Shown here piece after piece: positions 5,274-20,218 of a stretch of 56,751 bases of DNA. Under the pieces are notes generated by a model that was given only the letters and a program-made list of their open reading frames with translations, searched no databases and had not been told where the DNA came from. Source of the DNA: a virus (Duplodnaviria > Caudoviricetes); the IMG/VR virus record IMGVR_UViG_3300023174_000197, positions 1 to 56,751 of that record, one strand, 5' to 3'. Made by a program: the position numbers and the translations under genes. Each line of letters opens with the position of its first letter. The stretch's first letter is position 1.

Positions 5274-5474
5274 TTATGATGCAACTATGATGCGTGCAAT
5301 TTTGTTGCATTGCATGTGTACATCACGCAGCTGCCTGTGAAAGTTGTTGTTGACGAGGTCGCGAAGAGATGATTTCCACTGACGCAGCCTGGCAGCATGC
5401 GTCAATGTTGCTTTGGCATTGTCTGTTGTCATCTCAGCTGCAATGCGCAGGTTGTATTGTTGTTGTTGTGTCAT
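5274..5474 (-). CDS. helical microprotein (array member)
   Basis: 66 aa, ATGA overlap with neighbour. Confidence 0.65.
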   Translation of the reverse strand: MTQQQQYNLRIAAEMTTDNAKATLTHAARLRQWKSSLRDLVNNNFHRQLRDVHMQCNKIARIIVAS

Positions 5475-5674
5475 AGCAATATGATGCGAATGATGTCATT
5501 GCAATGCGTTGCAACTCGATTGATGCAGTAAATGATGTTTTTCTTGGACAGTTGATCAGCTGTTTGTATGTATTGTGCAGCATATATTACAGTTAACCTG
5601 CTGTTGGTGCCTGCTGAATTTGCTGATGCATTGATGCGGTGCAGTTGACTGCGGCTGAAGCGTTTGATGTTCAT
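5471..5674 (-). CDS. helical microprotein (array member)
   Basis: 67 aa; KNIxxCI...HCNxIxRI shared with 5696..5893. Confidence 0.7.
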   Translation of the reverse strand: MNIKRFSRSQLHRINASANSAGTNSRLTVIYAAQYIQTADQLSKKNIIYCINRVATHCNDIIRIILL

Positions 5675-5695
5675 ATTTTAAAAGATGATGATGTA

Positions 5696-5893
5696 CTACA
5701 GAATGCGAAAGATGGCATTGCAATGATGAACAATTTGGCTGATGCAAAACTTGATGTTTTTTTCAGCAGCATAATTGTTGTGTGCAATAGGATCACCCAG
5801 CCGGCGAGCATAAAGGAATGCCTTGATGGCATAGTCATTTATGATTTGCGCTGTATCATTCAGCTGATTCATTTGTTTTTGGACGATTTTCAT
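5696..5893 (-). CDS. helical microprotein (array member)
   Basis: 65 aa, ATGA overlap. Confidence 0.7.
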   Translation of the reverse strand: MKIVQKQMNQLNDTAQIINDYAIKAFLYARRLGDPIAHNNYAAEKNIKFCISQIVHHCNAIFRIL

Positions 5894-6123
5894 AGTTTAA
5901 AAGAGTGCATGCATTGCAACAATGCATCAATGATTGCGTTGCTCAAGTGTTGAATGTAATGCAATTGCAAATTGATTTGATTGCGAGTGTATTCAGTGGA
6001 TGAAGAATGTTGTGTTGGTTGAGTGTAAAGATGCATGGCATTGACATGGCCAAGGGCTTGAAGTGCATGATTGTAGATGACGTTGATGACGCGCAGCTGC
6101 TTGTTGTTGAAGTTTTTGCTCAT
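5890..6123 (-). CDS. helical microprotein (array member)
   Basis: Start MSKNF at the ATGA overlap. Confidence 0.65.
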   Translation of the reverse strand: MSKNFNNKQLRVINVIYNHALQALGHVNAMHLYTQPTQHSSSTEYTRNQINLQLHYIQHLSNAIIDALLQCMHSFKL

Positions 6124-6371
6124 ATGAACATGTTGGTGAGACTGTGCCACAATGCTAGTGCTGCATCAATGGCCAGCCGACACTGATGGTAATTCCATTG
6201 AGACACTTGCTGAGGACTCTGTGCACCTTTGGATGCTACATTGGGCTGCTTGTGAAACTCATGGCCACGATCAGCATACCATGCAGCTGTTTTGAAATTT
6301 TGAGTCATGTGTTGTGCTGCACTGTTGAAATATTTCAACTGTTGGGGTTGCATGGGCTTGTTTTTGCTCAT
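6120..6371 (-). CDS. helical microprotein (array member)
   Basis: Paralog of 6368..6631 (KTAxxYAxRG...WNYxxC). Confidence 0.7.
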   Translation of the reverse strand: MSKNKPMQPQQLKYFNSAAQHMTQNFKTAAWYADRGHEFHKQPNVASKGAQSPQQVSQWNYHQCRLAIDAALALWHSLTNMFI

Positions 6372-6631
6372 AATGATGCTGTTAATATTCTGATGATGTC
6401 CATCAATTCATGACCTGATGCTTCAATGGTGTATTTGCATTCTCTGTAATTCCATGCAGCCAATTTTTCTCGAGTGGAAAAGTTGTTGGCAGCAGATGAT
6501 TTGAAATTGGTATCTACTAGTGTTTCATCGCCACGTTGAGCATAATGCAGTGCTGTCTTGTATATACGAGTAATATAATCAGCTGTTGCATTGATGTGCT
6601 TCAATTGTTTGTAATGCATCTTTTTGTTCAT
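6368..6631 (-). CDS. helical microprotein (array member)
   Basis: Paralog of 6120..6371. Confidence 0.7.
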   Translation of the reverse strand: MNKKMHYKQLKHINATADYITRIYKTALHYAQRGDETLVDTNFKSSAANNFSTREKLAAWNYRECKYTIEASGHELMDIIRILTASL

Positions 6632-6659
6632 GCTTGCATGTATTTAAGCAGCAGCTGAT

Positions 6660-6905
6660 GTACAAATTCTGCATTTTTTGCGCAAAAAAATTTTCTCCCG
6701 GATTCAGAGATTGCGAAACCCATGTAGCGAGAGCGAAACCCATTATGGAATTTGATAGCGATTGCGAGCAAGAACCCTATATGGGAGTTGATAGCGAATG
6801 AGAGCCTATATAGCAATTTGTAGCGAGAGCGCTAAAAAAATTTGGCATGCGGTTCTTTCTAACTTTTCTACGCTGCGTCCTTCTGACAAAAATTCACGAC
6901 GACGT
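6660..6905. repeat. non-coding CpG-rich region with palindrome, A-tracts and degenerate direct repeats
   Basis: ttttttgcgcaaaaaa palindrome 6674-6689; tgtagcgagagcg x2; ttgatagcga x2; gcgaaaccca x2. Confidence 0.6.
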
Positions 6906-7081
6906 CTGCATCATCGCTGCTATCATCGCTCGCTGCACACTGCAGCAGCTGCATGTACGCCTGCATTATACCCTTGCAATGAAACTCAATCCACTGTACA
7001 TTACTCCACTGATGCACACATGATGGGACATGCTTAGCGTGCCATTGCATACCATGCTCACATTGCATTGCAATGATCTTA

Positions 7082-7279
7082 TTATAGTTGACTATGTGCA
7101 TCATTTATGATGTTGATCATCTGCTGTGTTAATGAACAGACATCTTCAATGAACCACCTGGTCATGCGTGCATTGCTGACCACATACTTGGTACCATTAG
7201 CAGTGTCAGTGATGCCGCGTGCCAGGTACCTGGTGATCGTTGCTGCATCAGCACGCCATTGCACTGATGAATCACTCAT
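7082..7279 (-). CDS. hypothetical microprotein
   Basis: Start MSDSS directly after the stop of 7281..7766. Confidence 0.5.
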   Translation of the reverse strand: MSDSSVQWRADAATITRYLARGITDTANGTKYVVSNARMTRWFIEDVCSLTQQMINIINDAHSQL

Positions 7280-7280
7280 G

Positions 7281-7766: not shown

Positions 7767-7811
7767 GCTATTAATATGGCGGCCTTTTGAATGTATGCAA
7801 CTGGTTCTGCT

Positions 7812-8015
7812 TTATTTCTTAGCACTATCAACGATGTCTTGCAGCAGATGCACAATGCCATCCAGTACATCATTGGCGCTGGCCAAGTGTGATGCTGCTG
7901 CATAAGAATCTTGACATGCACCTTTGGCCAAGTATTTCATCTCCCGTGCATTGTCACGCTGCTGCACTTTGAGATCTTTGATGAGGGCTTTGACTTGCTG
8001 GAGTGTTTCGTTCAT
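7812..8015 (-). CDS. small coiled-coil hypothetical protein
   Basis: 67 aa; TTGCAC-N17-CATAAT-N6-ATG. Confidence 0.7.
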   Translation of the reverse strand: MNETLQQVKALIKDLKVQQRDNAREMKYLAKGACQDSYAAASHLASANDVLDGIVHLLQDIVDSAKK

Positions 8016-8070: not shown

Positions 8071-8286
8071 ATGAAAAAAGTATCCAATGCATCAATACAA
8101 CGCATGCGAGTAACGCAACGAGCACAGCGCATAGCAAGAGATTTCCGTGACGTGGATTGGTTTAGTGGTCCTACCATGATGGGCCGCGATCCTTCCTACT
8201 ATAGATCATATCAAGCCAGCCTGCAACATGCTGTATCAAAAGCACAAATCATCGTTGATGCATTGTTGCAGATGATGCATGGGTAG
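8071..8286 (+). CDS. helical microprotein (array member)
   Basis: TAAATA-aatgca-ATG. Confidence 0.7.
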   Translation: MKKVSNASIQRMRVTQRAQRIARDFRDVDWFSGPTMMGRDPSYYRSYQASLQHAVSKAQIIVDALLQMMHG

Positions 8287-8307
8287 TGGCGCAACTAAAT
8301 AACTGCA

Positions 8308-8505
8308 ATGAAACCCATCAACGTTCGCAACCATGCGTATACCCATGCATATGCCAAGGTTATATATGATTACTTGGCCAAGCCAAGGTATGCTCACTTG
8401 TATGACTCACCAAATGGCTGTCATTTCATAGTCAAGCAATGCATAGATCAGAGTCAATACATTGCGCAGCGCATCATGTCCAGCATCATGATGATCAATA
8501 AATAA
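8308..8505 (+). CDS. helical microprotein (array member)
   Basis: TAAATA-actgca-ATG. Confidence 0.7.
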   Translation: MKPINVRNHAYTHAYAKVIYDYLAKPRYAHLYDSPNGCHFIVKQCIDQSQYIAQRIMSSIMMINK

Positions 8506-8509
8506 CTGC

Positions 8510-8752
8510 ATGAAAATGACCAAACAAGATCGCGCTGAAGCATGCGAAAGACTCATTTATGAAATCAACTCATGGGCAGAGATGGCTTACAACTACGCAT
8601 CCAATGCTGATTTGGCTGACAATCTCAAGTATGCTCAAAGTCTTCGCATCAGCAAACCTCATTTGTATCATTTCATACAGCATGAACTTACAGACCGCTT
8701 TGCTAATGTGGCTCAGCGATTCAGCAAGCTGTTCAAGTTGCCTAATAAATAA
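8510..8752 (+). CDS. helical microprotein (array member)
   Basis: TAAATA-actgc-ATG; paralog of 8757..8951. Confidence 0.7.
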   Translation: MKMTKQDRAEACERLIYEINSWAEMAYNYASNADLADNLKYAQSLRISKPHLYHFIQHELTDRFANVAQRFSKLFKLPNK

Positions 8753-8756
8753 CTGC

Positions 8757-8951
8757 ATGAACACTATCAGGCGCGCCAAGACCATCAGTCAAGTCACCAC
8801 CTGGGCTATGTTGGCTCACAACTATGTGGCTAATCCCAACTTGTCCAAGCTGTTGAGTCATGACAATCCACGGCAACGCAATTTCATACTCAACAGCTTG
8901 AATGAACAGTACACTGAAATGGCGCACTTATTCAGCAAGTTGTGCAGGTGA
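8757..8951 (+). CDS. helical microprotein (array member)
   Basis: Start moved to MNTIRR (TAAATA-actgc-ATG); WAxxAxNY...FSKL shared with 8510..8752. Confidence 0.7.
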   Translation: MNTIRRAKTISQVTTWAMLAHNYVANPNLSKLLSHDNPRQRNFILNSLNEQYTEMAHLFSKLCR

Positions 8952-8958: not shown

Positions 8959-9213
8959 CTAATGAGTATGCACTGTATTGAGTACCCAATCATCAATCTG
9001 ACTGTGACTCACACCGTACAAGCCATCCTGTTGTGATCGCAGATATGCATTCATTAGATTGGGCATATCACGTGCACTTGCAGTTGCCAGATCACCTTCA
9101 AATCCAGCAGCATACAAGACGCACTCCAAAAGATCAGCAGCATCTTCATGTGAGAGTTTGTGTTTGACTGCTTTGGCTAGCAGCTCTTTGGTAATGTCAG
9201 CGTGTTGACTCAT
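8959..9213 (-). CDS. hypothetical protein
   Basis: 84-aa ORF. Confidence 0.65.
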   Translation of the reverse strand: MSQHADITKELLAKAVKHKLSHEDAADLLECVLYAAGFEGDLATASARDMPNLMNAYLRSQQDGLYGVSHSQIDDWVLNTVHTH

Positions 9214-9217
9214 GTTG

Positions 9218-9412
9218 TTATAATGCTTTGCCTTGATAAGTTAATGTAATGTTGCCGTGTTTGTTTTCAACCCGTGGATGTTGCAGAGCAATGTAACCAG
9301 TTGCATCGCCATTCCTGTCACCATAAACCATTATGTCTGGATACTTGGCCATGAGCTTCTGAAAATCCTTTTTGAATTTAGCAAGCTTCTTAAGTTTATC
9401 TTCGTCTTTCAT
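9218..9412 (-). CDS. hypothetical protein
   Basis: 64-aa ORF; TATAAT just upstream. Confidence 0.65.
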   Translation of the reverse strand: MKDEDKLKKLAKFKKDFQKLMAKYPDIMVYGDRNGDATGYIALQHPRVENKHGNITLTYQGKAL

Positions 9413-9421
9413 ATTATTATA

Positions 9422-9592
9422 TCACCTTTCCCTCTTGTTGATTAGCTCATTATACATGTCCTGATGGATTTTATTAACTGTCCAATTCAATTCATGATAC
9501 AATTTGTTGACCATCCTATCTTCGCGAGACCACATCATGATCAAGCAAATTTGCCAACAACGACGTTTGAACCTTGTATACAACTTACTCAT
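9422..9592 (-). CDS. hypothetical protein
   Basis: Start MSKLY after TTGATT...TATAAT-N6. Confidence 0.55.
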   Translation of the reverse strand: MSKLYTRFKRRCWQICLIMMWSREDRMVNKLYHELNWTVNKIHQDMYNELINKRER

Positions 9593-9793
9593 GTTGTTAT
9601 TATACATTGGTTCCGTCATTGAATCAACTACTCATTGCTGCACTGAGTCGTTTGTTGGTGTTGTGCAGACGATTGCTTTTACAGTATGCACAACCGCCAT
9701 GATTGCGACATGTCTTGTCAAAGCGTTTGGATTTGGTATATGGCTTGCGAATGGTCCTGCTCATGATACAATGTAGTACATTACACATGTTGT

Positions 9794-10037: not shown

Positions 10038-10214
10038 GTGTCTGCCGTTGAAAGATTACCCAAGTCAATTACAATTGAATTCAGAGATGCATGGAGTGCA
10101 TCATACTATGGTGATGAAGATGCACCTTATGATGAAACAGCTGAAGCATGCATATCATATGGTGTGAATGGTGCAGTACTGTTGGTTGAAGCATTAATCA
10201 AAATCATACAATGA
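10038..10214 (+). CDS. helical microprotein (58 aa, GTG start)
   Basis: Manual ORF; TAAATA-N5-GTG; ATGA overlap with next gene. Confidence 0.6.
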   Translation: MSAVERLPKSITIEFRDAWSASYYGDEDAPYDETAEACISYGVNGAVLLVEALIKIIQ

Positions 10215-10393
10215 GACAACCACAACTCCTCAAAATGCCACCAGCATATTATGCACAGCGCATACAAGTAAATGCTGCACAAGCTGATGCAATGATGATG
10301 GATGAGCAGCACCGCATTGTGCAGAAATTGCAAGTAGTCTATGTATATTGTGGTGCATTGACACAACATTTGGCCAACAACATCATAAAATGA
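10211..10393 (+). CDS. helical microprotein (array member)
   Basis: PxxxYAxRI...Q.V..Y..AL..HLAN shared with 10390..10572. Confidence 0.7.
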   Translation: MRQPQLLKMPPAYYAQRIQVNAAQADAMMMDEQHRIVQKLQVVYVYCGALTQHLANNIIK

Positions 10394-10572
10394 ATGCACC
10401 ACATTTTAAAACACCAGCAAATGAGTATGCAGAACGTATACTGCGTACAGCTAAACAAGCCATAGAAATGCATGATCTTAGCTGGAATCTGATGACTATG
10501 AGCAGAGTACAAACAGTTTGTACATATGCGTGTGCACTGTCAAAGCACTTGGCCAACAAAATCAAATATTAG
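10390..10572 (+). CDS. helical microprotein (array member)
   Basis: Start MNAPH at ATGA overlap; paralog of 10211..10393. Confidence 0.7.
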   Translation: MNAPHFKTPANEYAERILRTAKQAIEMHDLSWNLMTMSRVQTVCTYACALSKHLANKIKY

Positions 10573-10760
10573 TGTTGATGCTGTATTGCGTATTGGATTT
10601 CATGCACTATGAACTTCAACCAACCATCCAGGTAATCGCCAACCACAGTGTATGGCGGCACTGAGTGCTTTCTTGCGTCCAAGAATCTGACTTGATGTTT
10701 CACGTAATTGTGTACCATGCCAGCAGTCTGACGCAATTGAATTGTTGTTGTATCATTCAC
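10569..10760 (-). CDS. helical microprotein (array member)
   Basis: TAAATA-N5-GTG. Confidence 0.65.
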   Translation of the reverse strand: MNDTTTIQLRQTAGMVHNYVKHQVRFLDARKHSVPPYTVVGDYLDGWLKFIVHEIQYAIQHQH

Positions 10761-10775
10761 AACAGTATTTATTAC

Positions 10776-10826
10776 AACGCGGATGTGAGCGCAACGCGGT
10801 TATTAGCGCAGTGCGGTTATGAGCTA
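10776..10826. repeat. three degenerate 17-bp direct repeats
   Basis: aacgcggatgtgagcgc / aacgcggttattagcgc / agtgcggttatgagcta. Confidence 0.7.
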
Positions 10827-11069
10827 AGTGTGTTGCAAGTTGATGAGGTATTTGAAATCACGTGCTACAATAACAAAGTGATTGATGATGTCCAAGTTCA
10901 ATATAGAGTCTGAATCACCATAAAACACTGATGCACGATTTTGTTGCGCCCACTTGTTGAGTTCTTGTACAGTTAATTCTGCATAAATGCGTGCATTGTT
11001 GTTGCCATATTTTATAGCGTGCTCTTGTATTGCATTGATGAGGCTTTGTATTTGTGTTGCGCGTTTCAT
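10824..11069 (-). CDS. helical microprotein (array member)
   Basis: Paralog of 11066..11320 and 12386..12604 (AIxYG...SDS.L..D.INHFV..ARDF..LINL). Confidence 0.75.
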   Translation of the reverse strand: MKRATQIQSLINAIQEHAIKYGNNNARIYAELTVQELNKWAQQNRASVFYGDSDSILNLDIINHFVIVARDFKYLINLQHT

Positions 11070-11320
11070 AAGTTGATGAGTTGTGCAAAGTCGCGCGCTG
11101 CTCTGACGAAATGATTGATGACATCTGCACTCAATAAAGAGTCTGATGCACCCAGATGCATTGCAGAACGATTAATTTGCGCCTGATCATTGAGGTCCTC
11201 CAATGCATATCTTGAGTAAACGCCAGCAGCATCTGCACCATGACGCACGCCATATTTGTATATTGCATCCAAAAGAACGCGTTTTTGCATTTGAATTTTC
11301 GCTTGACTATTTCTTTTCAC
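11066..11320 (-). CDS. helical microprotein (array member)
   Basis: TAAATA-N6-GTG; paralog of 10824..11069. Confidence 0.75.
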   Translation of the reverse strand: MKRNSQAKIQMQKRVLLDAIYKYGVRHGADAAGVYSRYALEDLNDQAQINRSAMHLGASDSLLSADVINHFVRAARDFAQLINL

Positions 11321-11325
11321 AATGA

Positions 11326-11718
11326 TTATTTATCATGCGCGCAACACTCAGAACCACAGTGTTCATTTGTATTTGCACTTATTTCTGTATTTCCTTGATT
11401 ATCAACAGTATATATTTCGTTGATAATGAATGCATTACACGCACTCACTGGACACATTAAATCATCAACTTTTGTTGATATTTCTACTTTTTCTACATGT
11501 TTTTGCACAGTTTCAAAGTTGTTTATACATTGTATGAAGCTCTTGGCTGCACTGCTGAAATAATGTTGTATGCTGCGTTGTATAAAGCCAGCAACTACAT
11601 CATTTGGTATATTAGCAAAGTTTTGCGTCAAATGATGCACATAGTAATTGCCGCATATTATAGCATGCAGATTCACTGCATCTGTATCTGTATCCAGTTG
11701 CATAGCCATTTCATCCAT
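11326..11718 (-). CDS. hypothetical protein
   Basis: 130-aa ORF. Confidence 0.55.
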   Translation of the reverse strand: MDEMAMQLDTDTDAVNLHAIICGNYYVHHLTQNFANIPNDVVAGFIQRSIQHYFSSAAKSFIQCINNFETVQKHVEKVEISTKVDDLMCPVSACNAFIINEIYTVDNQGNTEISANTNEHCGSECCAHDK

Positions 11719-11737
11719 GCATCAATGTACCAGCACT

Positions 11738-11931
11738 CTAATGCAATGCAAGCATCAAACTCTTCAACAGTTGTTGCACTTTGTTGAATATGTATTCATT
11801 GGAATGTTTGCCATGAGGGTGCTTTGCAATGAATGCATCATGTATGCAATGATGTTGTGCAGATAGTTGACTCGTTGTTGCAGCATTGCAATGTACAGTT
11901 GTTGTGTAACATTGTTCATTGGTTTTTTCAT
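11738..11931 (-). pseudogene. possible frameshifted array member
   Basis: ATG followed by A6; adding one A gives a 64-aa family-like ORF ending NKVQQLLKSLMLALH. Confidence 0.35.
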
Positions 11932-12194
11932 GCGTTTCTACGTTTCAATGTTTTCAATTTTTTCAACAACTTTACAATGTTCTTGGCTACTGTTGCATAG
12001 CCAACATATACAGCATCATCCCAGTCAAGTGTATGCATTGCAACAAATGCATAATTGCCCATGAGATACTCAGCATTGTGCATGCTGGTGCTGGCATCAT
12101 TGTTGATGTTCCACAGCAGCATGCTGGTGCCAACATCATTGTTGATGTGCAGCAAAAAATCATCTTGATTGGGAGTGGTGCGTTGCTTTTTCAT
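11928..12194 (-). CDS. helical microprotein with internal duplication
   Basis: Start MKKQR (TAAATA-N5); INNDVGTSM / INNDASTSM repeat. Confidence 0.65.
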   Translation of the reverse strand: MKKQRTTPNQDDFLLHINNDVGTSMLLWNINNDASTSMHNAEYLMGNYAFVAMHTLDWDDAVYVGYATVAKNIVKLLKKLKTLKRRNA

Positions 12195-12202
12195 ACACTT
12201 AT

Positions 12203-12376
12203 TTAAGATTTGATCATGTGCATCATATGCTGAGCAATGCTTTTGCAACAATTGTATACCAGTGCAGCATTGAAATATGACTCTTTGAATTTGATTTGGT
12301 TGTACATTACCATTGCATGCATGCCCATGATCAACTCTGATGTCACTGCACCAGATGTATTGTTTGCATCATTCAT
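12203..12376 (-). CDS. helical microprotein (57 aa)
   Basis: Manual ORF MNDANN...CCKSIAQHMMHMIKS; TAAATA-N6-ATG. Confidence 0.6.
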   Translation of the reverse strand: MNDANNTSGAVTSELIMGMHAMVMYNQIKFKESYFNAALVYNCCKSIAQHMMHMIKS

Positions 12377-12385
12377 TGCATTTAT

Positions 12386-12604
12386 TTATTCTTGTTGCAT
12401 GTTGATGATGTTGGCAAAATGATGTGCTGCTCTTACAAACCTGCGCATTATGTATACATCAACAGTACTTTTGATGTTTTCAAATTGTTGCCATGCATCC
12501 AGCTTGGATGCTGGCATTTTAGCATAATATTGTGCACTGTGATTGCCATAATTGATAGCATACAAATAAACACTCTCCAGCTCTCTCAGTTGTTGTTCAT
12601 TCAT
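12386..12604 (-). CDS. helical microprotein (array member)
   Basis: TAAATA-N6-ATG; AINYG...FVRAA..F. Confidence 0.7.
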   Translation of the reverse strand: MNEQQLRELESVYLYAINYGNHSAQYYAKMPASKLDAWQQFENIKSTVDVYIMRRFVRAAHHFANIINMQQE

Positions 12605-12968: not shown

Positions 12969-13165
12969 AGTGTGTTGATGAATTCTAATATGGTGTCTAC
13001 AATGTTGCTGCAGCGCCTGTTGGTGTGGTGCAATATATTTAGGGTTTCATGACGATCCAATGCATAAGCTGCAGGCTCATAATGGTTTATGATGCGCAAG
13101 TCTATGCGCATGGCTGCAGCATAATTACGCAGGGTGCCGGTGAGTACTTGTTGCTTATCGTTCAT
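12965..13165 (-). CDS. helical microprotein (array member)
   Basis: 66 aa, ATGA overlaps. Confidence 0.7.
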   Translation of the reverse strand: MNDKQQVLTGTLRNYAAAMRIDLRIINHYEPAAYALDRHETLNILHHTNRRCSNIVDTILEFINTL

Positions 13166-13368
13166 AAATTGATTAACTTGAGTAATTTGCGTATCAATGA
13201 CTCAATGTGCTTTTGTTCTTTGAAGTTGACCCAATTCCATTGTTGTTCATATGATCTGTAATTTATACGCTGTTGCTCTTTCAAGTGAACAAATTGATGC
13301 ATTGCATCAGTAAAATCTTTTGCATTTACGTTGACTGTTTGTATCAAGTTTCTGTATTGGGCGTTCAT
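13162..13368 (-). CDS. helical microprotein (array member)
   Basis: 68 aa, ATGA overlaps. Confidence 0.7.
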   Translation of the reverse strand: MNAQYRNLIQTVNVNAKDFTDAMHQFVHLKEQQRINYRSYEQQWNWVNFKEQKHIESLIRKLLKLINL

Positions 13369-13559
13369 AAATTAGTTAATTCTGCTATTCTGCGTGCACA
13401 TACAGCATAGTTTTGAATGGCATTGAACAAATGAAAGCTTTTCATGTGTTCATTCTGTGGATCCATCGTCACTTGTGCCCAACTGCTTTTGTAAAAAGCT
13501 GCATATGCACACTGGTTTATAATCTTAACATTGGCTTCAAATATTTTTTGTGTATCCAT
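13365..13559 (-). CDS. helical microprotein (array member)
   Basis: 64 aa. Confidence 0.7.
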   Translation of the reverse strand: MDTQKIFEANVKIINQCAYAAFYKSSWAQVTMDPQNEHMKSFHLFNAIQNYAVCARRIAELTNL

Positions 13560-13561
13560 AA

Positions 13562-13753
13562 TTATAATGCTTGTGTCAATTTGGTGATCAAATGATCTTG
13601 AATGAATTTCATGTTGCTGTTGATGGCTCTTGTTATTACGCCTTTATTTTCCTTGCGCATCATGGCAGTTACACCAGCTGAATTGACAAACAGTGCATTT
13701 TCTAAAACTTTTTCAGCAGTCCAGGCTAGGTATTCAATTTGTTCAGAGTTCAT
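13562..13753 (-). CDS. helical microprotein (array member)
   Basis: 63 aa, ATGA overlap. Confidence 0.7.
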   Translation of the reverse strand: MNSEQIEYLAWTAEKVLENALFVNSAGVTAMMRKENKGVITRAINSNMKFIQDHLITKLTQAL

Positions 13754-13947
13754 AAATTTTTGATGATGATGTGCAGTGCACTAGTTGCATCACGCACTGC
13801 TAGTTCCACTCCATTGATGTTCCAAAAACTTTGATTGTCTTGTGCACTTTGATGCGTCATCCAATGTGCATTGTTGTTTACTCTTGCAACAGCTGCATCA
13901 ATGCGACGCCACAGCAATTCATAATCTTGGTTTTTAAATTTTTTCAT
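13750..13947 (-). CDS. helical microprotein (array member)
   Basis: 65 aa, ATGA overlaps. Confidence 0.7.
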   Translation of the reverse strand: MKKFKNQDYELLWRRIDAAVARVNNNAHWMTHQSAQDNQSFWNINGVELAVRDATSALHIIIKNL

Positions 13948-14138
13948 TTGTTGTTGATTATGCTCATTGCAGCGTCCATTAAAACTTGCAACGGATAAAA
14001 TACACCATTGTTCATAAACAGTTCAGTGTGGCGTGGTGTGTATTGCAGCATGTTTCTGGTGTTGCGCCGCAATGTTTTGGCTTCCAGTTGCATTCTGAAT
14101 TGCATAGCGCGTTCATCAAATTTAGGCTTCCTTTTCAT
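13944..14138 (-). CDS. helical microprotein (array member)
   Basis: Start MKRKP, 64 aa. Confidence 0.65.
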   Translation of the reverse strand: MKRKPKFDERAMQFRMQLEAKTLRRNTRNMLQYTPRHTELFMNNGVFYPLQVLMDAAMSIINNK

Positions 14139-14146
14139 ATTATTAT

Positions 14147-14395
14147 TTACTTTTTCCTGTGCACTTGTTGCCAAGGTTCAATATTCAGTATATTATAGAC
14201 AATGGAGGACTGCAACATGTCTTGCACTTGTTCTGTGAACCTAGTTTTCAACACTTGTCTTGCAATTTCATCATTGCTCATTTTGTATCGTGTTGCAAAG
14301 TCTTGCATGCCATCCATAGCACGCAACAACAATTGACGCATGTTTTGACACACAACATTGAGTTTTTCAGCTTGCATTTGCTTCATGGTAATCAT
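14147..14395 (-). CDS. helical microprotein (array member)
   Basis: Start MITMKQ after TAAATA-N5. Confidence 0.65.
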   Translation of the reverse strand: MITMKQMQAEKLNVVCQNMRQLLLRAMDGMQDFATRYKMSNDEIARQVLKTRFTEQVQDMLQSSIVYNILNIEPWQQVHRKK

Positions 14396-14399
14396 AGCT

Positions 14400-14585
14400 T
14401 TATTTATTGATGATTCTTTGCATTGTTGCAGCAATGGCTTTGATCCACATGATGCATCTGTTCAAGCCATAATCACTGTGCTGTTCATCAGCTTCACGTG
14501 CATGGTCAGCTGCATAGCCAGCAGCATCTGACAAAAAGTTTGCTGTGTCACCAATGGAATTGTTTGTTGCAGAATTGATTTTCAT
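14400..14585 (-). CDS. helical microprotein (array member)
   Basis: 61 aa, ATGA overlap. Confidence 0.7.
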   Translation of the reverse strand: MKINSATNNSIGDTANFLSDAAGYAADHAREADEQHSDYGLNRCIMWIKAIAATMQRIINK

Positions 14586-14767
14586 AGTTGCACAAGTTTA
14601 CTTAAATTCTTAGCCACATATGCACAACAATCCATGGATTGCCTCAAATACTTCTCACGTTGAGTGACATGCCACCCTTCATTGCTGCATTCATTTGCGT
14701 ATAGAGCAAATTGCAATGCCCATTCAGTGTTTTTGATGATGGCTTGTTTGTGGACGGTGTTTTTCAT
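14582..14767 (-). CDS. helical microprotein (array member)
   Basis: 61 aa, ATGA overlaps. Confidence 0.7.
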   Translation of the reverse strand: MKNTVHKQAIIKNTEWALQFALYANECSNEGWHVTQREKYLRQSMDCCAYVAKNLSKLVQL

Positions 14768-14958
14768 TTTAGATGTATCAATGCAATGACTTTGCCAGGA
14801 AGTTCTCTGATCAAGTCTAACACTGCCTTTGAAAGATGATCTGGGTCATCTTCACTATGCAATATTCTAGCAATGTGTTCAACTCTCCAAGAGATAGAGC
14901 GTTGCATCTGGTGTATTCTGAATGCATCTGATGCGAGTTGATTGTCTCCTATTTTCAT
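14764..14958 (-). CDS. helical microprotein (array member)
   Basis: 64 aa. Confidence 0.7.
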   Translation of the reverse strand: MKIGDNQLASDAFRIHQMQRSISWRVEHIARILHSEDDPDHLSKAVLDLIRELPGKVIALIHLK

Positions 14959-14983
14959 GAGTTATTGTTCATACAGATTCATA

Positions 14984-15148
14984 TTACAGTACTTGTTTCA
15001 AGATTCTGATGATGCGCTGCACATACATTTGCATGTATCTAGTGCCATTGTACTTTTTGAAGCCTGAAGCAGTGATGCGTACATTGTTTTTTGCATCATG
15101 TGCATGCTTGAGCAGATAACTTATTTGTGGCTTGGATAGTTGTTTCAT
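14984..15148 (-). CDS. helical microprotein (54 aa)
   Basis: Manual ORF MKQLSKPQISYLLKHAHDAKNN...VQRIIRILKQVL. Confidence 0.6.
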   Translation of the reverse strand: MKQLSKPQISYLLKHAHDAKNNVRITASGFKKYNGTRYMQMYVQRIIRILKQVL

Positions 15149-15160
15149 ATTAGTAAGGAT

Positions 15161-15388
15161 TCATAATTCTGAAATTACTTTAACAAAGATGTTGGCAATA
15201 CTTTTGCATCTTTTGATGCAAAATTTGATGTGCAATTGGCAATCCATTGCAATGGGTGCCAATGACATGTTTATTTTGGCATACTTATTAGAGTACCTGG
15301 CATATGCTTGTGCATTTCTAGCATCGTGCTTGAGCTCGTTCAACTCAAATTGTGTATCATTATTCATTGTATTCATCTGTTGCATCAT
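15161..15388 (-). CDS. helical microprotein (array member)
   Basis: AYARY...IKFCIKRCKSI; IKFCI also occurs in 5696..5893. Confidence 0.7.
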   Translation of the reverse strand: MMQQMNTMNNDTQFELNELKHDARNAQAYARYSNKYAKINMSLAPIAMDCQLHIKFCIKRCKSIANIFVKVISEL

Positions 15389-15572
15389 ATCTTTTATTTT
15401 GCGTATGCATCATGAAAATGTATACGATTTCTTGGCAGCGTTGGCGAAACAAAGTGCAATAGTGCTTCACAGTAATTTCAGATTCATCTGCCTTGAGTGC
15501 ATACCTTAGTGCATACCTTATTGTTCTATCTGCTGCAAACGCTTGCATGCTCATTTCAATGTCATTGTTCAT
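15360..15572 (-). CDS. helical microprotein (array member)
   Basis: IRYALRYA...RCQEI. Confidence 0.7.
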   Translation of the reverse strand: MNNDIEMSMQAFAADRTIRYALRYALKADESEITVKHYCTLFRQRCQEIVYIFMMHTQNKRYDATDEYNE

Positions 15573-15760
15573 AGTTGTTGCAAAATTTCTTTGATGATAT
15601 CATTCTTGATGATGTTAATTTGCTGCACTGTTACTGCACTAATATGTTGATGCCTGGTTTCAAGAGTCTTGCAATGAGGCAGCAAACGCAATGCATATTT
15701 GATGTTATGGTTATACAGTTTGGCTGTTGTGTTTATGTACCTTATTTGCTCGCCAGTCAT
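15569..15760 (-). CDS. helical microprotein (array member)
   Basis: TAAATA-N5-ATG; IKYALR. Confidence 0.7.
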   Translation of the reverse strand: MTGEQIRYINTTAKLYNHNIKYALRLLPHCKTLETRHQHISAVTVQQINIIKNDIIKEILQQL

Positions 15761-15813: not shown

Positions 15814-17508
15814 CTACATTAAACTGGTCCAACCTGCAGCAATCAAATCTTGCATCTCATCACTCTGCATGGAGTCATTGCCAAAGCAAATGGGTGCAAC
15901 TGCATCAGCATCTTGAGCATATACAGCCAATGCATTGACTGGACGAGTGTAGTATTTGAGTCCAAAGTCCATGCCTTTGATGGCGCTGGGCTTGCCATTG
16001 TCATCCACACTCAAAATTTCAAAATAACGCTGGCATATGCCATTGTTGGCATCATTGTCCAGTGCCATCAATGCCCATATGAGACTCATAACGCAATCAT
16101 CTTTGTTGCTGCCACGTGCACTCCATGTACCATTGGCCTTGCGCACAAACTCTTTGAGCTCTTGAATGGTATTGACATCATTGAACCTGACGCATTGCAT
16201 TTCATTGACCCAATATCTCATGTTGAGTACACCTTTGTGCTTGGTATTGGTGTGTGCAATGACTCCCATCTGCTCTTTTTTGCGTCCAGCTACAGCAGCA
16301 CCATAGTTGATGATGTTTTCATATTTGTGCATGTGATACAAGTTGTCTACCACTTGAGCACCACAGTTGTTTCTTTCAATCATGGCCAATGGCTTGCCCC
16401 ATTGAGTCAATATTTCATGCAATTGTGTAGTGAAGTTGGGTACATCCACATCATTGCTTCTGAAACATGCCACTTGTTCAATGTTGGTCAAGTCTGTGAT
16501 GTCCAATATCTGTACAACGCTGTAATCTTGTCCAATGCCTTCAGCTACATCCACCCCTGCAATGTACAGTCTGTTGTCTTGCGGCATTTTCCATATTTTG
16601 TATCTATCATCTTGCAATGTCAAGACTGCATCACTGCACATGCTCTTGAATTTCTCAAACAACTCTGCATCAATGGATGATTCACCCTTTTGCAGAAACA
16701 CACAGTTGAACTCTTGTTCAAATGACTCTACACTGCCCAAGATCTTGATTTGCTCTTTCTTCCATTCTTCATCACGTCCTGGCACATCATCCCATTTGAT
16801 GATGCTGGTCACAAAGCTGTTTTCTCCACGCATGCTGCCATCATACAGTTTGTAAAACAAATTGTCTGTGCCATTGGGAGTAGATGCAATGAGCACTTTG
16901 GATTTCTTGGAGCGTGAAATGGTGGGCCATACTGAACGCCAAAAGTCTTCCATGATGGAAGGAGGATCAATGAAAGCCAACTCATCCAAGATCAATACAT
17001 TCAAAGAAGTACCACGAGCAGCACTGCCTGTTGTAGTTGAAATGCCGATTCTGGATCCATTGTCCAACATGAGGCTGGTCTTGCCATACTCAATGACGCC
17101 AGGCTTGAGCCAGTTGGGCAATTGCTCATAAGCCATGCGCACGCGGCGAAAGATTTCAATGGCTGTGCTCTCTTTGTTGGCTACAATGACTATGTTTTGG
17201 TCATCATTGAAGCATGCTACCCACAATGCATAAATGGTCAGCATGGTAGTTTTTCCAATCTGACGACTGGCCAACAAGATGTTGTATCTGTTGTCTCTGA
17301 GTGTTCTCAAAGATTGCTTTTGACATTTGAACAAGTTGATGACTGTTTTGCCTTCATCTGGGTCAATGATGTAAAAGAAATTCTCTGCAAAATGCAAAAT
17401 GTTTTGTCCACACTTTTTGATGTCTTGCACCATCTTTGGAGTGTACTCAAAACTGGCTCTGCTGGTGGGCAGAGCAGGGTTGTTGAGGTAGTATTGTTTG
17501 TCAGCCAT
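15814..17508 (-). CDS. terL: terminase large subunit (T4 gp17-like)
   Basis: YLNNP N-terminus, Walker A ASRQIGKT, Walker B ILDE, ASTPNG, FEQEF, nuclease GVDVAEG..DYS and DDCVMS; start MADKQ after TAAATA-N5. Confidence 0.95.
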   Translation of the reverse strand: MADKQYYLNNPALPTSRASFEYTPKMVQDIKKCGQNILHFAENFFYIIDPDEGKTVINLFKCQKQSLRTLRDNRYNILLASRQIGKTTMLTIYALWVACFNDDQNIVIVANKESTAIEIFRRVRMAYEQLPNWLKPGVIEYGKTSLMLDNGSRIGISTTTGSAARGTSLNVLILDELAFIDPPSIMEDFWRSVWPTISRSKKSKVLIASTPNGTDNLFYKLYDGSMRGENSFVTSIIKWDDVPGRDEEWKKEQIKILGSVESFEQEFNCVFLQKGESSIDAELFEKFKSMCSDAVLTLQDDRYKIWKMPQDNRLYIAGVDVAEGIGQDYSVVQILDITDLTNIEQVACFRSNDVDVPNFTTQLHEILTQWGKPLAMIERNNCGAQVVDNLYHMHKYENIINYGAAVAGRKKEQMGVIAHTNTKHKGVLNMRYWVNEMQCVRFNDVNTIQELKEFVRKANGTWSARGSNKDDCVMSLIWALMALDNDANNGICQRYFEILSVDDNGKPSAIKGMDFGLKYYTRPVNALAVYAQDADAVAPICFGNDSMQSDEMQDLIAAGWTSLM

Positions 17509-17536
17509 GCATGTATTTACATGCTGCATCATTTAA

Positions 17537-17884
17537 TCAATCATATTCAAACTCATACAATGCCCTGCCTTGATATACAATTTGAACCAGTGCTGCTGTT
17601 TCTTTGTATTGTTGTCTGAATTCAGGTGTATCAGAAGCGCCTGAGAAAATAGTTATATTAGTTATATTATTGCCATTATAATGCCTGATGGGCAGTGCAT
17701 AATTTAGTTTATTCAACATTTCATTCAGCAGTTGAGCCAATCCAACAACAACACTGCTGACAAATTCACCCATGGGTCTTTCATTCTGCACCATATTTAG
17801 TGTTATAACTATGCGACGGTTGAATCTGTCAACCAAAGTTTGTGCAACACTCTGAGCAGGAACTTGTATAGTAGCATTCATCAT
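17537..17884 (-). CDS. hypothetical protein, paralog family B
   Basis: PAQSVAQ.LV..FN.RI...DTPEF..Q...IV.QGR.LYEFEY shared with 18222..18563. Confidence 0.75.
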   Translation of the reverse strand: MMNATIQVPAQSVAQTLVDRFNRRIVITLNMVQNERPMGEFVSSVVVGLAQLLNEMLNKLNYALPIRHYNGNNITNITIFSGASDTPEFRQQYKETAALVQIVYQGRALYEFEYD

Positions 17885-17888
17885 AGCA

Positions 17889-18194
17889 TTAGTTATCTAC
17901 ATATCCAAATATCACTTTGCCATCATGCACTATTTGTATAAATTCTGCCCCAACATTTGCTTTGTACTCTGGTGTTGCTTTTGCAGCAAGGATTACTCTC
18001 TGCTCACCTTCTGCATTCAAAATGTCTCTGCCATCCACAACCAATTTTATCAATGCAACCATGTTAGCACAGTTGCTGACCAATGAACGAGCAATGACGT
18101 CTTGTGCGTAACTTGTATTTCTACTCACCATAATAACATATTTTGACATGCGATTCAAAACACTCTGCACTGGAATTTTTACTGTATCATTCAT
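17889..18194 (-). CDS. hypothetical protein, paralog family B
   Basis: IPVQSV...ATPEY...QIVHDGK; TAAATA-N6-ATG. Confidence 0.7.
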   Translation of the reverse strand: MNDTVKIPVQSVLNRMSKYVIMVSRNTSYAQDVIARSLVSNCANMVALIKLVVDGRDILNAEGEQRVILAAKATPEYKANVGAEFIQIVHDGKVIFGYVDN

Positions 18195-18221
18195 TGCATT
18201 TATTTAGATACACACCACTCA

Positions 18222-18563
18222 TCAACTGTATTCAAACTCATACAACTTTCTGCCTTGATGTACTATGTAAAATTTATCCAACATTACCTTGTGTTGTCGT
18301 TGAAATTCTGGTGTATCCATTGCAGATAAGAAGATGGTTACATTTGCATCATCATTTTCATGATATGATACACCATCATCAGTATCTTTCAACATTTCGC
18401 TCATGAGTTGAGCCAATGCAATTGGTACATTGCTGATGAATGTACCAATTTTGCCACTGGGCTGCTGCACAGCAAAGCCCTTGTTTTTGAGAGACATGGC
18501 TATGCGCTTGTTGAACTTGGTGACCAACATTTGTGCAACACTTGAAGCAGGAACTTGTTTCAT
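18222..18563 (-). CDS. hypothetical protein, paralog family B
   Basis: See 17537..17884. Confidence 0.75.
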   Translation of the reverse strand: MKQVPASSVAQMLVTKFNKRIAMSLKNKGFAVQQPSGKIGTFISNVPIALAQLMSEMLKDTDDGVSYHENDDANVTIFLSAMDTPEFQRQHKVMLDKFYIVHQGRKLYEFEYS

Positions 18564-18579
18564 AGCATTAGTTATTAAA

Positions 18580-18765
18580 TTATTTTATGCTAACCTTTTG
18601 ATATATCAATATAAGATCAACAATTCTGTAAAGGTCATAATAGATGTATGTAACAGCATCTTCTATACTTTCCCTACCCTTCATTGCATTTGCTCTTGTG
18701 CAATTGCTGAGCAAATTCTCTGAATAAACATTGAGGTTGTAAATTGTGTAGTTGATTGGACTCAT
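18580..18765 (-). CDS. helical microprotein (array member)
   Basis: C.RA...E.IE.AV..IYY motif shared with the next two ORFs. Confidence 0.7.
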   Translation of the reverse strand: MSPINYTIYNLNVYSENLLSNCTRANAMKGRESIEDAVTYIYYDLYRIVDLILIYQKVSIK

Positions 18766-18772
18766 GCTAAAA

Positions 18773-18982
18773 TTACTTGGTGAATTGTTTCCAATCTACA
18801 AGAGCAATGGTGTCAGCAATTTTATCTATTTCGTAGTAGATGTCAATGACAGCTTCTTCCAACCATTCATCTGCATCATATGTATCTGCTCTGTGACAAA
18901 GATCACTCACTTGCCATACATAAGCTTCCAGATAATAAAATGCGCGGTTCATAGGATCACGTGTTGGTATGTGAGGTGTCAT
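18773..18982 (-). CDS. helical microprotein (array member)
   Basis: DLCHRADTY...DIYYEID...DW. Confidence 0.75.
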   Translation of the reverse strand: MTPHIPTRDPMNRAFYYLEAYVWQVSDLCHRADTYDADEWLEEAVIDIYYEIDKIADTIALVDWKQFTK

Positions 18983-18988
18983 AAATTT

Positions 18989-19198
18989 CTAGGTGTAGTT
19001 ATTCCAATCCATGGACTTGATGGTGCCTACAATCCAATTATCTATCTCATCATAGATATCATTGACAGTTGACTCTATCAGTTCCACTCTAGCATATGAA
19101 TCAGCCATGTGACAAAGATCAGTCAAAGACCTTGCAAAAGAGTCCAAATAAAAAAGTCTGTAATACAAAGGACTACTTGCTGATGTAGGAGGTGTCAT
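18989..19198 (-). CDS. helical microprotein (array member)
   Basis: DLCHMADSY...DIYDEID...DW. Confidence 0.75.
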   Translation of the reverse strand: MTPPTSASSPLYYRLFYLDSFARSLTDLCHMADSYARVELIESTVNDIYDEIDNWIVGTIKSMDWNNYT

Positions 19199-19437
19199 AA
19201 ATGCTTGTGGATTGCTGCTGTTTGCTCTGTGTCTCGCTTGGTTTCATCTGCAATGATGTTGACAATGTATTTGCAGTTTATGCCAATGTCTTTCATGTAT
19301 TCTTTCATATAGTCTTTGATAGACAAGCGTGGTACAGGATTTTTCATTGCAGTGTATATACTATGCAACATGAATGCAATGTCCTGTGCAGAAGCAGTTA
19401 TTCTGGAGTTGATGGGGAGTGCGTAGTTGGCTTGCAT
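19195..19437 (-). CDS. helical microprotein (array member)
   Basis: Start MQANY; C..IVNIIA C-terminal helix. Confidence 0.6.
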   Translation of the reverse strand: MQANYALPINSRITASAQDIAFMLHSIYTAMKNPVPRLSIKDYMKEYMKDIGINCKYIVNIIADETKRDTEQTAAIHKHL

Positions 19438-19445
19438 GATGTATA

Positions 19446-19661
19446 TTACACGTCTATGTGAGGCTGTGAGTCTTGTTGCGCTGCATTGGCAAGGGTACCT
19501 GCAATGTGTTGACAATATTTACTCACAGTGCGTATTGTGCCTCTGTACCATGCATTTGATGCAGTCGGTTGCATCATATTGTACAAATGATCTGAAACAT
19601 CCAGCGCATAATAATCAAGCAATTTGAGTGTGTGAGCAGTGACTGGAAAGTTGGTTTGCAT
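19446..19661 (-). CDS. helical microprotein (array member)
   Basis: Start MQTNF; resembles 19195..19437. Confidence 0.6.
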   Translation of the reverse strand: MQTNFPVTAHTLKLLDYYALDVSDHLYNMMQPTASNAWYRGTIRTVSKYCQHIAGTLANAAQQDSQPHIDV

Positions 19662-19668
19662 TTTGTAT

Positions 19669-19866
19669 TTATTTAATGCTTGTGATGACACTGATGATGC
19701 GTTTCAAAGCATTGTCAATGAGCAGCTGTTGTGAACGATCAACATGAAGCTGCCTGTTATGATCTTCATTTATCACTTCAGCAATGTATTTGAACCAATG
19801 TGCATCATTTGCAAGTTTGGTAACATTGTTTTCATCATCAAATGGATCATCTTCAAAACTATTCAT
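19669..19866 (-). CDS. helical microprotein (array member)
   Basis: 65 aa, ATGA overlap. Confidence 0.65.
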   Translation of the reverse strand: MNSFEDDPFDDENNVTKLANDAHWFKYIAEVINEDHNRQLHVDRSQQLLIDNALKRIISVITSIK

Positions 19867-20048
19867 AGTTGTCTTTTCAACACGTGTTTGCTGGTGATGA
19901 GATCTGTAATGTTCACTGCCAAGTAATTTAAACGAGATGTTATAGCATTTAAATGTATAGCAGGCCGATGAGATGCTAGCTGCTGCAGATCATAATCTAT
20001 CAGCTGCTTTGCTATGCGTGCTGTATTGTTGAGTGTCAATGGAATCAT
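19863..20048 (-). CDS. helical microprotein (array member)
   Basis: 61 aa, ATGA overlaps. Confidence 0.65.
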   Translation of the reverse strand: MIPLTLNNTARIAKQLIDYDLQQLASHRPAIHLNAITSRLNYLAVNITDLITSKHVLKRQL

Positions 20049-20218
20049 TGTGCATTCATTGTTTTTATTACAGTGTCTTTAATAGATTTTACTCTGCGAA
20101 AGATCTCATTCATATTGAATGGCCTTTTTTCATAATGATCTCTGCCATAACCAGCATAAAAATTGCAGTAATATTTTAAATTAGCTGTTGTATATTCCAA
20201 CATCTCTTCTTCACTCAT
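20045..20218 (-). CDS. helical microprotein (57 aa)
   Basis: Manual ORF MSEEEMLEYTTANLKYYC...; TATAAATA-N5-ATG. Confidence 0.6.
   Translation of the reverse strand: MSEEEMLEYTTANLKYYCNFYAGYGRDHYEKRPFNMNEIFRRVKSIKDTVIKTMNAQ

Follow-up and report, generated by a model that had tools for sequence, protein, structure and literature searches.

The window analyzed in this work is a whole IMG/VR virus record (IMGVR_UViG_3300023174_000197) of 56,751 bases with a completeness rating of about 34%, and its region 5274-20218 contains a dense array of small open reading frames (ORFs). After start-codon refinement, in which a few starts were revised using orthologues and start-adjacent sequence boxes, this region was found to contain 48 genes of 54-88 amino acids (aa), with a median of 65, and additionally one gene of 130 aa, the gene of the large terminase subunit, a trio of paralogues of 101-115 aa and one gene of 161 aa. 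The small ORFs that an initial annotation had listed were recovered at their coordinates, the four blocks that it named holding 45 of them, one of 130 aa. The array is interpreted here, with a probability of about 0.55, as a hyperplastic accessory-gene region of the 'ORFanage' type, whose genes would be expressed from leaderless messenger RNA (mRNA) of a late type and whose products are guessed to be binders. The organization of the region is given below, where genes are called by their lower coordinate, letters denote a superfamily (A) and families (B, C and D) of related proteins, and distances are in nucleotides (nt):

5274..6631, minus strand: block 1, an operon-like chain of six small genes (66, 67, 65, 77, 83 and 87 aa) headed by TAAATA at 6641-6646, with ATGA overlaps at four junctions; 5274, 5471, 5696, 6120 and 6368 are the core of superfamily A, and 5890 is marginal to it.
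6868-7104 and 7082-7279, minus strand, predicted starts: two probable extra small genes between the named blocks (78 aa, and 65 aa as counted from Met52 of a 116-aa ORF), also open in the relative L007 (8468-8665 and 8284-8490); the 7082-7279 gene resembles array members in its A..YLA and C..INII look.
7812..8015, minus strand: a 67-aa gene preceded by a 49-nt cassette at 8004-8052.
8071..8951, plus strand: block 2, made up of four small genes of 71, 65, 80 and 64 aa, each of which has its own TAAATA 5-6 nt ahead of the ATG; 8308 is weakly linked to the paralogous pair 8510 and 8757.
8959..9619, minus strand: three small genes (84, 64 and 65 aa) with a composition unlike that of array members.
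10038..10572, plus strand: a chain of three genes (58, 60 and 60 aa), headed by TAAATA at 10027-10032 and joined by two ATGA overlaps, in which 10211 and 10390 are paralogous.
10569..15760, minus strand: main part of block 3, 24 tiled genes, 23 of 54-88 aa and one of 130 aa, comprising family B (10824, 11066, 12386), the superfamily A genes 14400, 15161 and 15569, with 15360 and 12601 as marginal members, and numerous singletons, with TAAATA boxes that end at 10771, 11332, 12205, 12388, 12616, 14149, 14406 and 15771.
15814..17508, minus strand: large terminase subunit, with TAAATA at 17514-17519, 5 nt before an internal ATG (Met9; the longest ORF runs to 17532); start and box are equivalent in the relative L003.
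17537..18563, minus strand: three paralogous genes (115, 101 and 113 aa) without a known family, located immediately upstream of the terminase gene.
18580..20218, minus strand: block 4, eight small genes (57-80 aa) with TAAATA boxes ending at 19675 and 20229; it includes family C (18580, 18773, 18989) and family D (19195 and 19446, both with starts revised to an internal Met).

The ORF at 15814-17532 had its best matches, among 50,697 phage records, in gp17 of T4-like cyanophages, with about 33% identity over 98% of its length, while megablast of the array region against the same records gave no match. Near-identical DNA was present in lake and freshwater metagenomes, with parts of the stretch in 13 studies, and, by its matches, the source is an uncultured freshwater phage with a distantly T4-like terminase. 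Two related phages were available for comparison, namely L002, with a terminase 93% identical to that of the window and continued by the contig L007, and L003, a separate phage with a terminase of 52% identity. Contigs from other lake samples (X2-X5) were compared along the stretches that they cover.

Analysis of coding capacity revealed that, on the minus strand of 10569-15760, 96.9% of the sequence lies within 26 ORFs of 54 aa or longer, as compared to a mean of 10.6% and a maximum of 28.7% in 200 shuffles. The start codon forms an ATGA overlap of 4 nt with the upstream gene at 21 of the 48 starts and is preceded at 5-9 nt by TAAATA in 16 genes, so that the two signals together account for 37 starts, in agreement with the chaining by overlaps or by individual boxes described in the initial annotation. 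Nine of ten genes looked up exist in public protein sets with identical ends, produced by several pipelines and named nothing else than 'hypothetical protein'. In addition, the ratio of nonsynonymous to synonymous substitution rates (dN/dS) was below 1 in 22 of 23 orthologue pairs with the close relative, with a pooled value of 0.50 compared to 0.10 for the terminase. Taken together, the open frames, signals and substitution pattern indicate that the array ORFs are real, fast-evolving genes. It is very improbable that many of them are chance or decaying frames kept open by base composition. Such an origin would agree with the long ORFs of the opposite strand (59% cover), with the dN/dS of 0.76-1.14 obtained for the single genes 10038, 10569, 12386 and 19669, and with the lack of half of the genes in the close relative, but it does not account for exact overlaps and start-adjacent boxes in such number, for a cover far above the shuffle maximum, for the prevalence of dN/dS values below 1 or for the ORFs that stay open in relatives.

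The TAAATA sequence was depleted in the window, with 57 sites compared to 81 expected from shuffles. The sites were concentrated at gene starts: 36 of the 57 preceded the start of an ORF of 40 aa or more by 3-10 nt, where 2.2 were expected, although two of these share a single gene and dubious TTG ORFs follow at least two of them. Of the 32 gene starts headed by a box, 29 had a spacing of 5 or 6 nt. Besides the small genes, the box precedes the terminase gene, the endolysin gene encoded at the left window end, two homing endonuclease genes and several larger genes without known function. Its distribution is regional, since it was found at 28 of 68 gene starts in 1-23.3 kilobases (kb) as compared to 4 of 44 in 23.4-56 kb. 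In the relative L003, 11 of 17 TAAATA sites lie 5-6 nt before ORF starts, including those of the terminase and of an operon with a baseplate-wedge gene, and not that of the clamp loader. Ahead of 45 gene starts, Shine-Dalgarno-like words were almost absent.

The right-hand 33 kb of the window is of the replication and nucleotide-metabolism type and encodes a helicase-like ATPase, RNA and DNA ligases, a nicotinamide phosphoribosyltransferase, a ribose-phosphate pyrophosphokinase and homing endonucleases. Between 23.4 and 56 kb, a TATAAT-like hexamer (TANNWT) was found 5-8 nt upstream at 17 of 44 starts, and the non-late genes of 23400-56751 look leaderless too. This hexamer often has GGAAC or GGAAA a few bases upstream, and Shine-Dalgarno-like words are almost absent from this part of the window too.

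As described in the available part of Nolan et al. (2006, PMC1524935), the T4 late promoter is TATAAATA at -13 to -6 and is read by gp55 together with gp33 and gp45, while in other T4-like phages its first positions are variable (A or T at -13), with CTAAATA in phage Aeh1. The box of the array resembles these promoters in its TAAATA core, in variable first positions that fit, and in its association with packaging, lysis and virion genes, and differs from them in being locked 5-6 nt from the start codon and in heading dozens of novel small ORFs. With the T4 box at -13 to -6, a spacing of 5 nt would place position +1 on the A of the ATG. The array would thus consist of short operons, each started by a T4-late-type box (A/C/T)TAAATA, whose spacing of 5-6 nt sets the predicted transcription start on the ATG or 1 nt before it and would give a leaderless mRNA; because of this locked spacing, there would be neither a leader nor a ribosome-binding site. 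Genes downstream in each operon would be read through ATGA stop-start coupling without Shine-Dalgarno sites, so that a promoter fused to the ATG and subsequent ATGA coupling would form a coherent scheme of expression. A literature search on leaderless mRNA from late promoters in T4-like phages returned nothing relevant.

Since the box is common to the terminase gene, the endolysin gene and the baseplate operon of L003, the small genes would be late, and a late class for them is plausible from these shared boxes. If it is true, their products would be needed late in infection or in the next cell. The initial annotation had called a late-type signal on small accessory genes unexpected, and this surprise was justified because, according to PMC1524935, only genes orthologous to T4 late genes had a late promoter in front of them, and the expression of novel ORFs seems to accompany that of early genes. 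A different explanation is that TAAATA lies on a longer mRNA and serves translation initiation or the binding of a regulator, in which case the small genes could be early. The box occupies, 5-6 nt ahead of the ATG, the place expected for a ribosome-binding site, which agrees with this explanation, as do the near absence of Shine-Dalgarno-like words, the lack of a late sigma factor among the window ORFs scanned, and the chance-level frequency of sigma-70-type promoters (49 compared to 49.8 expected) and of intrinsic-terminator-like sites (14 compared to 13.6) in the region. This explanation is nevertheless unlikely, given that the box is the core of a promoter conserved across T4-like phages, according to the accessible part of PMC1524935, that it is kept to the terminase, lysis, L003 baseplate and small genes while the replication-type genes bear the TATAAT-like hexamer, and that the motif is depleted elsewhere.

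Comparison with the relatives revealed a high turnover of the array genes. L002 and L007 together are mosaic in relation to the window: their segments, interrupted by gaps and replacements, share 67-93% identity with it, and 26 of 52 proteins have an orthologue there (at least 45% identity over at least 70% of the length). At some conserved positions the relative bears a distant paralogue instead, as for 15161 (34% identity), 15360 (33%) and 20045 (38%). Several joints in the lake contigs coincide with gene starts: in X3, the joint 17874->18188 connects the 5' ends of two of the three paralogues upstream of the terminase gene and leaves one copy fewer, as is also the case in L002, while in X3 and X5 the joint 19424->19649 connects the 5' ends of the family D genes 19195 and 19446. 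In X3, the joint 9213->9593 (loss of 9214-9592) removes two genes.

The contigs X3 and X5 cross positions 8006-8056 twice, with extra DNA between the two crossings. These positions correspond to the 49-nt start cassette at 8004-8052, which is repeated at 7755-7803, in front of the gene 7281-7766, and is present in three to four copies in L007, each before a gene; by these alignments, the cassette is a site of extra inserted genes in relatives. Furthermore, a 24-nt sequence comprising box and start recurs at 12365-12388, 18183-18206 and elsewhere. Whole gene units are thus gained and lost, with breakpoints at the similar 5' ends of tandem paralogues and at the repeated start cassette, and the similar gene starts serve as recombination sites through which units are added or removed. 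Observed separately, an insert of about 370 nt in L007 (1998-2368, equal to L002 14713-15083) is rich in G+C, open in several frames and absent from the window; it gave no Rfam match at the gathering threshold.

Gene accordions, as known from poxviruses, arise by recent tandem amplification, with near-identical copies whose number changes under selection. Amplification of this type, which had been proposed for the array, was not borne out: the best identity between paralogues was 46-48% and near-identical recent duplicates were not present, even though losses of units between paralogues do occur. The low maximum identity points to an old amplification plus turnover in place of an active accordion, so that recombination of the accordion kind would act on old copies. 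The comparison of copy number and dN/dS among relatives, which the initial annotation had suggested, thus gave both gain and loss of units and values mostly below 1.

Searches by blastp among the 52 proteins detected 10 pairs with an E-value below 1e-3 and 21 pairs below 0.05, as compared to 0 and 0-3 pairs, respectively, in five shuffled sets. All six paralogue groups named in the initial annotation were significant: 5471/5696 (9e-6), 6120/6368 (9e-15), 8510/8757 (6e-8), 10211/10390 (1e-6), 10824/11066/12386 (1e-20 to 4e-6) and 18580/18773/18989 (2e-15 to 2e-3). The genes 19195 and 19446 were joined as a pair via the genes of the relative. The motif IKFCI, noted earlier as common to 5696 and 15161, is indeed present in both, and the two proteins align in one profile. 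Among the genes upstream of the terminase gene, the paralogy of 17537, 17889 and 18222 was found at blastp E-values of 3e-30 and 3e-3; 17537 had no PHROG match, and the trio occupies the position that the small terminase subunit has in T4.

More distant relationships were examined with profiles. Iterative searches with hidden Markov models (HMMs) stopped at clusters of 2-5 members, with reversed-sequence decoys entering occasionally, and a gapless expectation-maximisation motif finder run over 45 proteins returned nothing meaningful. When 35 cluster profiles were compared all against all by hhalign, 8 of 595 pairs exceeded the best of 595 reversed-profile controls (score 21.5), and two pairs, compared to no control, reached a probability of 50%. 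Within block 1, the 5274 cluster was linked to the 6120 cluster with a probability of 90%. Between blocks 1 and 3, 15569 (70%) and 10038 were linked to the 6120 cluster, and 14400 and 15161 to the 5274 cluster, while further links joined 5890 with 8071, 8510 with 8308, and 12601 with 15161. A superfamily alignment of 12 sequences showed a convincing shared pattern, QQ(L/I)..IN..A, N.K.A..YA.R, a variable loop, N(I/Y)..C...I and C..I.RI; the minus-strand rows of these alignments start at codon 2, without Met1. The superfamily profile added 2 of 37 array proteins (5890 and 15360) at a decoy rate of 1%, and 11 of the 37 scored at least 3.5 bits, as compared to 7.0% of 740 shuffled sequences and 2 of 37 reversed decoys. 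Likewise, the mean Smith-Waterman score across clusters (969 pairs) was 24.4, with 23.3 for reversed, 22.6 for shuffled and 22.2 for other small phage proteins. In our reading of these scores, the array comprises one superfamily of 8-13 members in blocks 1 and 3 and five families with 2-3 members each; about 18 genes are singletons, some of which, with their weak excess similarity, may be very distant members of the superfamily.

Structure prediction of 6368 from the 12-row alignment gave a two-helix hairpin with a predicted local distance difference test score (pLDDT) of 87.3 and a predicted template modelling score (pTM) of 0.71, the helices spanning model residues 6-37 and 53-84; Met1 is absent from the model, and protein numbering is that of the model plus 1. 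A homodimer prediction for the 6368 family scored 0.02. Both proteins modelled, this one and 10824 of family B, are predicted to be all-helical, and one of the two models is a confident two-helix hairpin. The composition of the array proteins points in a similar direction: Gly and Pro amount to 3.7%, as compared to 7.7% in 22 other small proteins of the same phage, and peak at mid-length, which fits a helix-break-helix layout, and the last 30% of the array proteins is rich in hydrophobic residues (37-41% compared to 25-26%).

The ends of the proteins are also similar, with N or K as residue 2 in 29 of 45 proteins, a C-terminal Leu in 12 of the 21 proteins that end in an ATGA overlap, and a C-terminal Lys in 8 of the 27 others, several of which correspond to AAT AAA TAA, that is, to the TAAATA box of the next gene. 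Where a gene starts in an ATGA overlap, its second codon must begin with A, a constraint that was checked against the overlap sequence and not codon by codon. Part of the family look at the N- and C-termini is thus, as far as these codons indicate, imposed by DNA signals. The common layout described in the initial annotation is therefore visible in aggregate, in the Gly, Pro and hydrophobicity profiles, but its termini are partly shaped by overlapping DNA signals. For annotation in general this is a warning, as overlapping signals that shape the first and last residues of tiny proteins can mimic family motifs.

The initial annotation went further and derived all of the about 45 genes from one amplified helical-hairpin gene, as a library of binding surfaces. 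The uniform size, the layout seen in aggregate and the profile links across blocks (6120 with 15569, 5274 with 14400 and with 15161, 5890 with 8071) agree with a single origin, as do the excess of non-members scoring at least 3.5 bits and the slightly raised Smith-Waterman mean. Nevertheless, 587 of the 595 profile pairs did not exceed the best reversed decoy, HMM searches ended at 2-5 members with decoys sometimes entering, and part of the similarity at the termini comes from DNA signals and not from descent; moreover, family B is modelled as three helices, at low confidence, and families C and D are acidic and different-looking in sequence. Descent of the whole array from one gene is consequently doubtful. 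What stands of the single scaffold is a superfamily that spans blocks 1 and 3, with its hairpin model and with profile links above decoys, while the profile comparison (8 of 595 pairs) and the two further members gained among 37 proteins do not extend it to the remaining genes.

The earlier statement that the small proteins belong to no known family was confirmed. None of the 52 proteins matched PHROGs, one had a weak Pfam match (PAC4, E-value 0.0065), and the best E-value against PDB sequence profiles was 0.16, with no match for a second profile. Foldseek with the hairpin model returned 0 matches at an E-value of 0.001 or lower in PDB and BFVD, and the best score in the ESM Atlas, 0.81, was under the recognition mark. 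ESCRT-III, Vipp1, PE/PPE, AcrIIC4 and further matches were rejected as relatives, as they are generic hairpins that all had E-values above 0.4. When the superfamily profile was run against 1.84 billion representatives, 11 matches were found at an E-value of 1e-3 or lower; the 10 examined are orthologues of query members, and the remaining protein, of 999 aa, was matched in four stretches. With 10824 as the query, a word-based search retrieved its own protein and five homologues of 72-77% identity. The sole match to a family B profile in IMG/VR was an already known contig, and a scan of metagenomes added L007. The array families are, by the outcome of these searches, confined to this phage lineage.

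Several observations speak against the interpretation of the array as a late, leaderless accessory region encoding binders. The full T4 octamer TATAAATA is present at only 8 of the 57 boxes, and the PHROG and Pfam matches of 60 larger ORFs in the window, which represents at most about a third of the genome, included no gp55-like late sigma factor. With its fixed distance from the ATG, TAAATA could instead be a signal for translation or be bound by a regulator. No RNA run with this DNA was found among the sequencing runs searched, and we infer timing, start sites and translation. The pooled dN/dS is equally compatible with relaxed constraint and with diversifying selection. Regarding the fold, the model of 10824 was poor (pLDDT 60.8, three helices), and with 2 of 48 proteins modelled the shared fold is seen for one family only.

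The closest known systems are the hyperplastic regions of T4-type phages and the 'ORFanage' of cyanophage S-PM2. T4-type hyperplastic regions are reportedly also the subject of Comeau et al. (2014, PMC4122927). In the available text of Arbiol et al. (2010, PMC2839356), these regions consist of small non-essential ORFans between conserved genes, which are shuffled through PeSL cassettes, that is, strong sigma-70-like early promoters with terminator stem-loops. The array is similar in being a variable cluster of small ORFans in a phage of the T4 superfamily, with insertions, deletions and replacements between close relatives, and in having short repeated regulatory sequences at gene boundaries as recombination sites. 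In contrast to PeSL regions, the boundaries are formed by a TAAATA box at the start codon, an ATGA overlap or the 49-nt start cassette, and many array genes are paralogous to each other. Because sigma-70-type promoters and terminators occur at chance level, the boundary elements are not PeSL cassettes.

The ORFanage of S-PM2, a T4-like phage, comprises 33 contiguous ORFans that have no homologues elsewhere and are dispensable in the laboratory, where they impose a cost; it occurs in aquatic metagenomes and is enriched in those from freshwater (Puxty et al., 2015, PMC4503421, in the part accessible). The array shares with it a contiguous run of lineage-restricted ORFans in a phage with a T4-like terminase, and no sequence relation between the two was found. 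Paralogue families, ATGA chaining and a late-type box distinguish the array from that account, the accessible part of which mentions neither paralogues nor a late promoter. Three elements are new in the present case: start codons with a late-type box fused to them, genes chained by ATGA overlaps and, among the ORFans, a hairpin superfamily restricted to one lineage.

Leaderless expression itself has precedents in other phages and bacteria. In the Thermus phage phiYS40, a large myovirus, the middle and late genes are leaderless. Leaderless mRNAs of Deinococcus-Thermus arise from a -10 box adjoining the ORF, according to the accessible part of PMC12340547. The array would resemble these cases by a promoter element directly before the start codon and a predicted transcription start at the ATG, and differs from them in phage lineage and in promoter sequence, which here is a T4-type late box.

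The function of the array proteins was considered in the light of these comparisons. The internal proteins IPI-IPIII of T4 are small and basic, are made late and are encoded at a polymorphic locus, and IPI blocks a host restriction system. The array proteins could likewise be packaged in the capsid and injected with the DNA. They are small and mostly basic, 31 of 48 having an isoelectric point above 8, the box shared with terminase and endolysin predicts a late class, and the locus differs between close relatives, so that this origin would account for small, variable, basic proteins being made late. Such a role is quite unlikely, given that no array protein matched PHROGs, internal-protein families included, and that the L/I/V/M-x-E motif at residues 4-22, a T4-type prohead-protease motif for targeting and cleavage from which the protease of this phage could differ in specificity, was found in 8 of 45 proteins compared to 6.5 +/- 2.3 in shuffles and is thus not enriched. 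The number of genes is also different, about 50 in the array as compared to 3-6.

Under the preferred interpretation as an accessory region, the guess is that the proteins would be made late, bind host or phage macromolecules, and be dispensable but useful under some conditions. A role in host interaction or counter-defence is tentatively suggested, at somewhat less than even odds. A more specific version, in which a library of about 50 hairpins is made late from leaderless transcripts, with a T4-type late promoter fused to each start codon, is driven by recombination, and is either loaded into the capsid and injected or acts as late decoys or inhibitors of host sensors for late phage proteins such as the terminase, whose gene lies beside the array, is a long shot. 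If it were true, the hairpin library would correspond, late in infection, to the early anti-defence islands known from other phages. Most genes of large phages that lack an assigned role lie in variable ORFan regions, the expression and renewal of which are poorly understood.

Regarding the phage itself, a public contig of 220,619 bases carries proteins identical to window proteins, and for this reason the phage genome is probably about 220 kb long. At the left end of the window, a gene at 1-942 (minus strand) is headed by a TAAATA box and belongs to the DUF1501 family (Pfam E-value 2.5e-66, with the match assigned by ORF length only). Among the matches listed (at least 80 loci), the closest cellular homologues of this gene, with 52-61% identity, were almost all from Verrucomicrobiota and a few from Planctomycetota; the Verrucomicrobiota homologues are the sole, weak hint to a host.

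Just outside the array, sequence at 20938-21380 (minus strand) is directly repeated about every 205-218 nt (100 nt at 80% and 75 nt at 71% identity). These repeats indicate another tandem set of small paralogues, which begin MNPPAHLFPFRKGALWALEDF and have a composition different from that of the array. At 25901-28456 (minus strand), one protein matched an intein splicing domain (Pfam PF14890, E-value 2.5e-7), and a homing-endonuclease ORF at 26508-27608 with its own TAAATA box is located between the ORF 25901-26542 and an RNA-ligase-like ORF at 27656-28456; the segment is probably an intein or homing-endonuclease insertion inside a replication or repair gene.

No RNA gene was detected within 5274-20218 by Rfam at the gathering threshold or by ARAGORN. 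Both programs called a transfer RNA (tRNA) gene for Met at 32299-32373 (minus strand). In addition, a stretch of 110 nt at 36106-36215 (minus strand), which ARAGORN did not call, matched the Rfam tRNA model from end to end with 35.7 bits and may be a tRNA carrying an insertion.

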